A stretch of 64,000 nt of DNA from the NCBI RefSeq assembly GCF_030013205.1, contig NZ_CP122648.1, one strand, 5' to 3'. Made by a program: the position numbers and the translations under genes. The notes beneath the pieces are model-generated. The model saw nothing but the letters and a program-made list of their open reading frames with translations. It was not told where the DNA came from and did not search any database. Source of the stretch: Escherichia coli. GTDB taxonomy: Bacteria; Pseudomonadota; Gammaproteobacteria; Enterobacterales; Enterobacteriaceae. Positions 22,841 through 22,859 of the stretch are shown here, piece after piece. Position 1 is the first letter of the stretch; each line of letters opens with the position of its first letter.

Positions 22841-22859
22841 GTGCTTTCCCCGCCTCGCC
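22841..22859. other. P2-type cos site (19-nt cohesive-end sequence; window carries the reverse complement of GGCGAGGCGGGGAAAGCAC)
   Basis: gtgctttccccgcctcgcc read directly; matches the P2 cohesive-end sequence as I recall it. Confidence 0.55.

Follow-up and report, generated by a model that had tools for sequence, protein, structure and literature searches.

A sequence-intact P2-family cos site in a WΦ-type Escherichia coli prophage that has lost its lysis genes and most of its tail genes

Capsid-forming PICIs (cf-PICIs) are satellites with capsid and packaging genes of their own, whereas their tails come from helper phages. They constitute a widespread, conserved family, which is characterized by a PICI-type regulatory module and a packaging specificity unlike that of the helpers. 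P4 and the P4/P2 cosmids are organized differently. P4 is devoid of head and terminase genes and carries sid, psu, delta, epsilon and the alpha primase, none of which occurs in the element described below, and the cosmids are sub-genomic circular cos DNA that is packaged by the P2 terminase. According to the accounts of Ziermann and Calendar (1990) given in PMC9594776 and PMC2231350, P2 and P4 have a common, conserved cos region of 55 bp. In P2-like phages, the cos-adjacent locus between gpA and gpQ is a hotspot for accessory cassettes, which for the most part are anti-phage, and the equivalent locus of P4-like satellites is a hotspot too (Rousset et al., 2022; PMC9122126). In E. coli, P2-like prophages that are defective or cryptic are common, and the P2 relative WΦ integrates at a site distinct from that of P2, at ~4.10 Mb of the E. 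coli chromosome (PMC3448106).

The window analyzed here, a stretch of E. coli DNA of 64,000 nucleotides, contains one such element at positions 12480-30892 (18,413 bp in its integrated form, ~18,366 bp as a circle). It is located between fieF (11499-12419) and cpxP (30916-31419), and outside the element the window consists of ordinary core chromosome of E. coli with glp, tpiA, pfkA, cpx, rha, frv, and fdo genes. The direct repeat at its two ends corresponds to WΦ 22550-22596, where both element ends overlap (attP core), and the fieF/cpxP locus is compatible with the published WΦ integration site at ~4.10 Mb. BLAST alignments reveal that the element is collinear with WΦ and P2 except for the cargo locus and a single gap of ~12-14 kb from gene Y to gene T. 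Its features are the following (window coordinates, strand, description):

12480-12526, no strand: att core repeat on the fieF side, a 47-bp perfect direct repeat with 30846-30892
12638-14580, minus: retained tail genes U (97.5% identical to P2) and D (98.7%) and the late activator gene ogr (Ogr 100% P2)
14595-16142, minus: in-frame Y'-'T fusion ORF of 515 aa, with ~72 aa of the holin Y followed by the last ~443 aa of the tape measure protein T
16146-16349, minus: X, a retained tail gene (67 aa; 100% WΦ)
16349-16858, minus: L, head completion (169 aa; 99.4% P2)
16958-17701, minus: M, terminase small subunit (247 aa; 97.6% P2 and WΦ; Pfam Phage_term_smal)
17705-18778, minus: N, major capsid protein (357 aa; 99.7% P2)
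18837-19691, minus: O, capsid scaffold (284 aa; 99.6% P2)
19692-19864, no strand: divergent late promoters PP/PO with the Ogr activator site (172 of 173 positions as in P2 2994-3166)
19865-21637, plus: P, terminase large (ATPase) subunit (590 aa; 100% P2 gpP; Pfam Terminase_5, Terminase_6N, and Terminase_6C)
21637-22671, plus: Q, portal (344 aa; 99.1% P2, 99.4% WΦ; no stops; Pfam Phage_portal)
22677-22700, plus: tQ, rho-independent terminator after Q (hairpin 22677-22692 with a 6-bp all-GC stem, followed by a T-run)
22834-22888, minus: 55-bp cos core conserved between P2 and P4, defined by alignment to P2, WΦ, P4, and 186
22841-22859, minus: 19-nt P2-type cohesive-end sequence, an exact single match
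22988-24830, minus: cargo cassette of two genes in the cos-adjacent hotspot
22988-23407, minus: cargo gene for a 139-aa protein without domain match (ORF list, Pfam)
23499-24830, minus: cargo gene for a 443-aa HNH_2 protein (Pfam HNH_2, E=8e-11)
24940-29234, minus: early/replication module with A, homologues of orf83/82/81/80, B, and cox
24940-27216, minus: A (97.8% P2), with the ori nick region near 25318-25398
28292-28792, minus: B (99.4% P2)
28962-29234, minus: cox (Cox 100% WΦ)
29387-29680, plus: C, immunity repressor (100% WΦ, 44% P2)
29750-30730, plus: integrase (99.7% WΦ, 50% P2)
30846-30892, no strand: att core repeat on the cpxP side, the same 47-bp repeat

Int, C, and Cox are only 40-50% identical to their P2 counterparts, and by sequence the element is a peduovirus prophage of the WΦ immunity and WΦ integration type. 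The products of Q, P, O, N, M, L, A, and B are full length, lack internal stops, and show 97.6-100% protein identity to P2. A preliminary description of this DNA had stated that the terminase genes are intact, and this is borne out by P (100% P2) and M (97.6% P2), both of which are full length with complete Pfam domains. The P2 segment matched by the PP/PO region contains the annotated activator binding site. Within 40 bp on either side of the ori nick, 78 of 81 positions are those of P2, and the sequences are identical within ±30 bp. As far as can be judged from these comparisons, the head, packaging, replication, and excision genes, the ori, and the late promoter look intact.

The P2 cohesive-end 19-mer (the cosN equivalent), GGCGAGGCGGGGAAAGCAC, is matched exactly at 22841-22859 on the minus strand. 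It occurs only once in the window, even if up to three mismatches are allowed, at a chance expectation of 0.01. The preliminary description, which placed the reverse complement of the P2 19-mer between the Q terminator and the cargo genes, was thus correct. All 19 positions agree with P2 cosL 1-19 and also with the ends of WΦ and P4; the 19-mer of 186 differs at two positions. For a comparison of the whole cos region, the circular junctions of P2, WΦ, P4, and 186 were aligned with the window. The block conserved between P2 and P4 in this alignment is exactly 55 bp long and comprises the 19-mer together with 29 bp flanking it on the right-end side and 7 bp on the left-end side. Over this core, the element is identical to P2 at 53, to WΦ at 54, to P4 at 50, and to 186 at 50 of the 55 positions, and each of its bases is found in at least one of these four phages, so that no base is novel. 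The two differences from P2, at core positions 14 and 18, are the bases of WΦ and 186, the single mismatch to WΦ is the base of P2, P4, and 186, and position 49 is a T as in P2 and WΦ, where P4 has a C. Many isolated peduoviruses match the core at 54 of 55 positions, which is also the best value reached, as none of the sequenced phages in the collection matches all 55. A cos of the 186 type or the P4 type was considered and rejected on the basis of this base-by-base comparison and of the gene context.

The preliminary description had proposed a comparison with the cos regions of P2 and 186, and had named changes in the 19-mer at positions essential for terminase cleavage as evidence against a functional site. 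No such change was found, as the 19-mer is that of P2 and the core agrees with functional phages. Indeed, the 19-mer, the 55-bp core, the location between Q/tQ and the accessory genes, and the cognate gpP and gpM are all those of the P2 family. The 19-mer is therefore part of an authentic, sequence-intact P2-family (Peduovirus) cos, and cleavage and packaging would be expected from this identity.

The order of elements on this side of the prophage is the Q stop codon (22671), tQ (22677-22692), cos (22841-22859), the cargo (from 22988), and A (24940-27216). The 19-mer lies 170 bp downstream of the Q stop codon and ~130 bp from the 3' end of the 139-aa cargo ORF. The terminator is homologous to the annotated tQ of P2 (P2 160-181), and the P2 annotation gives the gene order A, orf91, tin, old, cos, Q. 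While the hotspot is occupied by old and tin in P2, it contains the HNH_2 gene and a hypothetical gene here. Since this is the standard location in the family, from Q/tQ to the gpA-side hotspot, the finding of a cos at this position is correct but ordinary. A cos site beside cargo is canonical in every P2-like phage and is no sign of special retention. The preliminary description of a cos “retained next to the cargo” is consequently right with respect to the position, but misleading if taken as a peculiarity, as the P2 cos adjoins old and tin and the locus is a described hotspot (PMC9122126). Two small terminator-like hairpins with T-rich runs bracket the 19-mer and face away from it (22822-22837 on the minus strand and 22861-22875 on the plus strand). 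The right-side hairpin is the conserved CCGnCCC...GGGCGG element within the 55-bp core, and the WΦ/186-type substitutions at positions 14 and 18 make its stem weaker than in P2 and P4.

In the 19-mer, the core (53/55 and 54/55), the position, and the near-identical cognate terminase, the cos of the element resembles those of P2 and WΦ. It differs from them in residing in a prophage without lysis genes and without most tail genes. The deletion responsible joins P2 6932 to 20951, or WΦ 6933 to 19135, in the BLAST alignments, with a GGGTA microhomology at the join and the junction near 15926-15941. Pfam assigns residues 1-77 of the resulting fusion ORF to Phage_holin_3_2 (model positions 1-78 of 86) and residues 68-140 to PhageMin_Tail, and in the PGAP annotation both parts appear as partial pseudogenes, one of a holin and one of a tape measure. 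The fusion ORF is now located inside the PO late operon (O N M L X Y'-'T U D). The genes lost are K, lysA, lysB, lysC, R, S, V, W, J, I, H, G, the Z/fun-equivalent locus, FI, FII, E/E', and the 5' 45% of T. The holin gene Y is truncated and the endolysin gene K is gone, and X, 'T, U, D, and ogr are kept. The statement in the preliminary description that the tail genes are lost holds for most of them, but BLAST, Pfam, and PGAP agree that X, U, D, and the last ~443 codons of T are retained. That the same deletion also removed the lysis genes had been missed. This in-frame Y-to-T deletion is previously undescribed, and the element is otherwise unremarkable.

The P2 gene order, the 47-bp att repeats, the Y-to-T gap, and the partial pseudogenes annotated by PGAP are the attributes of a defective P2-like prophage. 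The element resembles known representatives in its synteny, its att repeats, the deletion of late genes, and the preservation of the regulatory module and the cargo. It is an ordinary defective P2-like prophage, and the cos finding is of an already known kind. Very probably, the site is the intact cos of a WΦ-type prophage with a recent Y-to-T deletion, i.e., a passively inherited cis site with a latent capacity. According to this model, a WΦ-type P2-like prophage would have integrated at the 47-bp att site between fieF and cpxP, and a single recent deletion of ~12-14 kb, from Y to T at the GGGTA microhomology, would have removed the lysis genes and most tail genes. The cos site would have been inherited passively and would still be sequence-perfect in cis. 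Upon derepression, the element would be able to excise, to replicate, to build heads, and to cut and package its own ~18.4-kb circle. By itself, it would produce no tails and no lysis. Only a co-resident P2-like phage that provides tails and lysis could turn the filled heads into transducing particles. In this view, the decaying prophage would have a latent capacity for transfer, which is neither a demonstrated nor a selected route. The value of the locus lies mainly in its annotation as a WΦ-type P2-like remnant with a sequence-intact packaging site and head module and with cargo in a known hotspot.

The distribution of the element was analyzed at several levels. The window is matched at 100% identity in the porcine ETEC strain ETEC4079 (Belgium) and five sister strains. 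A scan of complete E. coli genomes with a 400-bp query across the Y'-'T junction, in which a genome was counted when the query was fully covered, identified the junction in 6 of 5,426 genomes. All of them are sister porcine ETEC strains of one near-clonal lineage with the junction at the same locus. A 32-mer over the junction yielded no match in IMG/VR, in the JGI metagenome contigs, or in the GTDB species-representative genomes. Taken over the 5,426 complete genomes, IMG/VR, the JGI metagenomes, and the GTDB representatives, there were no signs of spread or mobilization of the element. Other tail-less variants were suspected among genomes with ~70% coverage; the two inspected examples, ETEC-2265 and PEC41, turned out to be full-length prophages, in which the matches end where the deletion of the query lies.

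A further derivative is present in strain K_EC180 (swine, Korea; NZ_CP062203.1, locus L008, 16842-28059), which is 99.986% identical to positions 1-14483 and 21352-42991 of the window. It lacks window positions 14484-21351, and with them 'T, Y', X, L, M, N, O, and most of U and P. The remnant of ~11.5 kb keeps Q, cos, the HNH_2 cargo, A, B, cox, C, int, D, and ogr. The K_EC180 deletion could be independent of the Y-to-T deletion and not nested in it. The overall pattern fits a progressive erosion, in which cos survives by linkage and not by selection for packaging competence. One lineage on two continents would thus exhibit a stepwise erosion of a prophage, from an inferred intact parent of ~31-32 kb to 18.4 kb and to 11.5 kb, with the accessory cassette and cos persisting at each step and the morphogenetic genes dropping out.

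The preliminary description had suggested that a P2-like helper phage could, in principle, package and transduce the element and move the cargo with it, and this interpretation is partly supported. Judged from the gene content, helper-assisted packaging of the element is plausible in principle, provided that the element is excised as a circle. The terminase of the P2/P4 family prefers covalently closed circles (PMC2231350), and the element must therefore excise first. Excision would require its own WΦ-type Cox, the synthesis of which should be kept off by the resident C repressor. WΦ Cox fails to complement a P2 cox mutant (PMC3936717), which makes excision in trans by a heteroimmune P2 helper doubtful; probably, such a helper cannot excise the element. 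A helper of the same immunity would be subject to repression as well. With the endolysin and most tail genes missing, the best outcome of self-induction would be heads filled with DNA that stay enclosed in a cell that does not lyse. As the terminase and the heads are encoded by the element, a helper would have to supply just tails and lysis. P4 and the P4/P2 cosmids, with which the element has the 55-bp cos in common, likewise rely on a P2-like phage for these two functions.

Cosmids of 4.7-10 kb enter P4 capsids (PMC2231350), a pUC-based cosmid enters P2 capsids and gives ~1e7 transducing units per mL (PMC9942202), and transduction efficiencies of up to 0.035 are described (PMC9594776). Since small plasmids with nothing but a cos are packaged, an 18.4-kb circle is not barred by its size. 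However, P2 packaging is most efficient at genome-matched sizes (PMC9942202) and the circle amounts to ~55% of the P2 genome, so that yields could be low. In the six source genomes, a cos-region query at low stringency matched one place each and revealed no second P2/P4-type cos, and a Y/T query also matched one place each and revealed no second P2-like copy. Consequently, no resident P2-type helper was detected. A U/D query at “distant” sensitivity matched 3-4 places per genome in NZ_CP122643.1 and the five sister genomes, i.e., 2-3 places beyond the element. These additional U/D-like places presumably represent other contractile-tail prophages or remnants in the source strain.

It is improbable that the element is a functional satellite-like entity, which fills P2 heads of its own with DNA, routinely takes tails and lysis from P2-like phages, and spreads the HNH_2 cargo in this way. 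Such a lifestyle would agree with the head, packaging, replication, and excision functions and the cos, which are intact by sequence, with the loss of precisely the tail and lysis functions, and with the transduction of sub-genome-length cos DNA by P2 capsids (PMC2231350, PMC9594776, PMC9942202). However, the junction is found in only six of the 5,426 genomes, within one near-clonal porcine ETEC lineage and at the same att site, and it has no match in the viral, metagenome, and species-representative collections. In addition, the useless tail fragments X, 'T, U, and D are kept, and the terminase and cos are not distinct from those of the helpers. K_EC180 dropped P, O, N, M, and L, yet kept the cargo, which argues for decay and not for selection for packaging. 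Finally, the source genomes contain no P2-type helper cos, and the specificity of Cox restricts excision in trans (PMC3936717).

In its functional outline, the element resembles a cf-PICI, with heads, terminase, and cos of its own and no complete tail module. It has the genes for head and packaging and lacks V, W, J, I, H, G, FI, FII, E, R, and S, but X, 'T, U, and D remain. In contrast to the cf-PICIs, it is a deletion derivative of an ordinary phage in one lineage, with a cos and terminase identical to those of helpers and with leftover tail fragments. Membership in a cf-PICI-type lineage was rejected, given that the six genomes among the 5,426 represent one lineage and that neither cos nor terminase differs essentially from its counterpart in P2 and WΦ. 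Unlike P4, the element carries the full P2 set of head and terminase genes (Q, P, O, N, M, L) and consists of P2 DNA throughout. Membership among the P4-like satellites was rejected as well, since structural and terminase genes are present and no P4-type gene is annotated.

A related idea, which we consider very doubtful, is that the Y-to-T deletion accidentally created a “proto-satellite,” i.e., a self-replicating and self-encapsidating circle of 18.4 kb that needs tails and lysis and could spread the HNH_2 cassette. If true, the element would be a snapshot of a capsid-forming satellite arising from a helper-type phage in a single step. Should mobilization be shown, it could serve, on a modest scale, as a model of how tail-stealing satellites originate.

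It is equally doubtful that the cos is a dead relic, whose sequence or context no longer supports terminase binding and cleavage and which would leave the element unpackageable. The two core positions that differ from P2 (14 and 18 of 55) are located in the small hairpin on the right-end side, but at both the element has the base of WΦ and 186, which are viable phages. Cosmid efficiency can shift more than 1000-fold with the sequences flanking the 55 bp (PMC9594776), and the cargo-side flank of the element departs from P2 past ~30 bp. Outside the core, however, this flank varies among all functional P2-like phages and P4: all phages compared, P4 included, diverge from each other ~30 bp past the cut. 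This divergence is expected, as the variable locus adjoins the cos on this side. The region from about -30 to +190 around cos, including tQ, aligns with P2 and WΦ. On the Q side, the flank is ~97% identical to both phages over more than 150 bp, through tQ into Q, which further argues against a disabled context.

That the 19-mer is a chance match, which was rejected in view of the expectation of 0.01, or belongs to a P4-like satellite, given that P4 has the identical 19-mer, has a negligible probability, as the site is flanked by a P2/WΦ gpQ gene on one side and by the hotspot and gpA on the other, all of the 18.4 kb except the cargo can be aligned with WΦ, the annotation of the element contains no P4 genes, and core position 49 is the T of P2 and WΦ and not the C of P4.

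The cargo cassette adjacent to the cos consists of two genes whose products fall into PHROGs 20585 and 12893, both of which are of unknown function. The 443-aa protein has a lysine-rich N-terminus and a C-terminal HNH_2 domain, the HNH part of which weakly resembles modification-dependent and phosphorothioate-DNA restriction nucleases. Its best PDB match is 6yex (E=0.025), and it matches NCBIfam NF045808 (PT-DNA_restrict) with E=3e-8, far under the cut-off of that model. PADLOC returned generic HNH matches only and a marginal PD-Lambda-3_B match (E=0.002). Among the isolated phages of the collection, none has a full-length homologue of the cargo. Rousset et al. (2022; PMC9122126) include in their table of the P2 hotspot an “HNH_2 + hypothetical” cassette whose 139-aa protein (WP_023281582) is identical to the one found here, but “HNH” does not occur in their main text. 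The two-gene cargo is probably an uncharacterized anti-phage system.

The same two cargo proteins (WP_023281581 and WP_023281582) are encoded in the pig strain PEC41 (NZ_CM168023.1, locus L007, 13063-14905). There, they belong to a P2-type prophage that appears to be intact, has P2-type immunity, and is integrated near yegR, i.e., at a site other than fieF/cpxP. The flank from cos to the cargo is 100% identical in PEC41. A segment of cassette and cos is thus common to P2-type and WΦ-type regulatory backbones and provides evidence of modular exchange at the hotspot.
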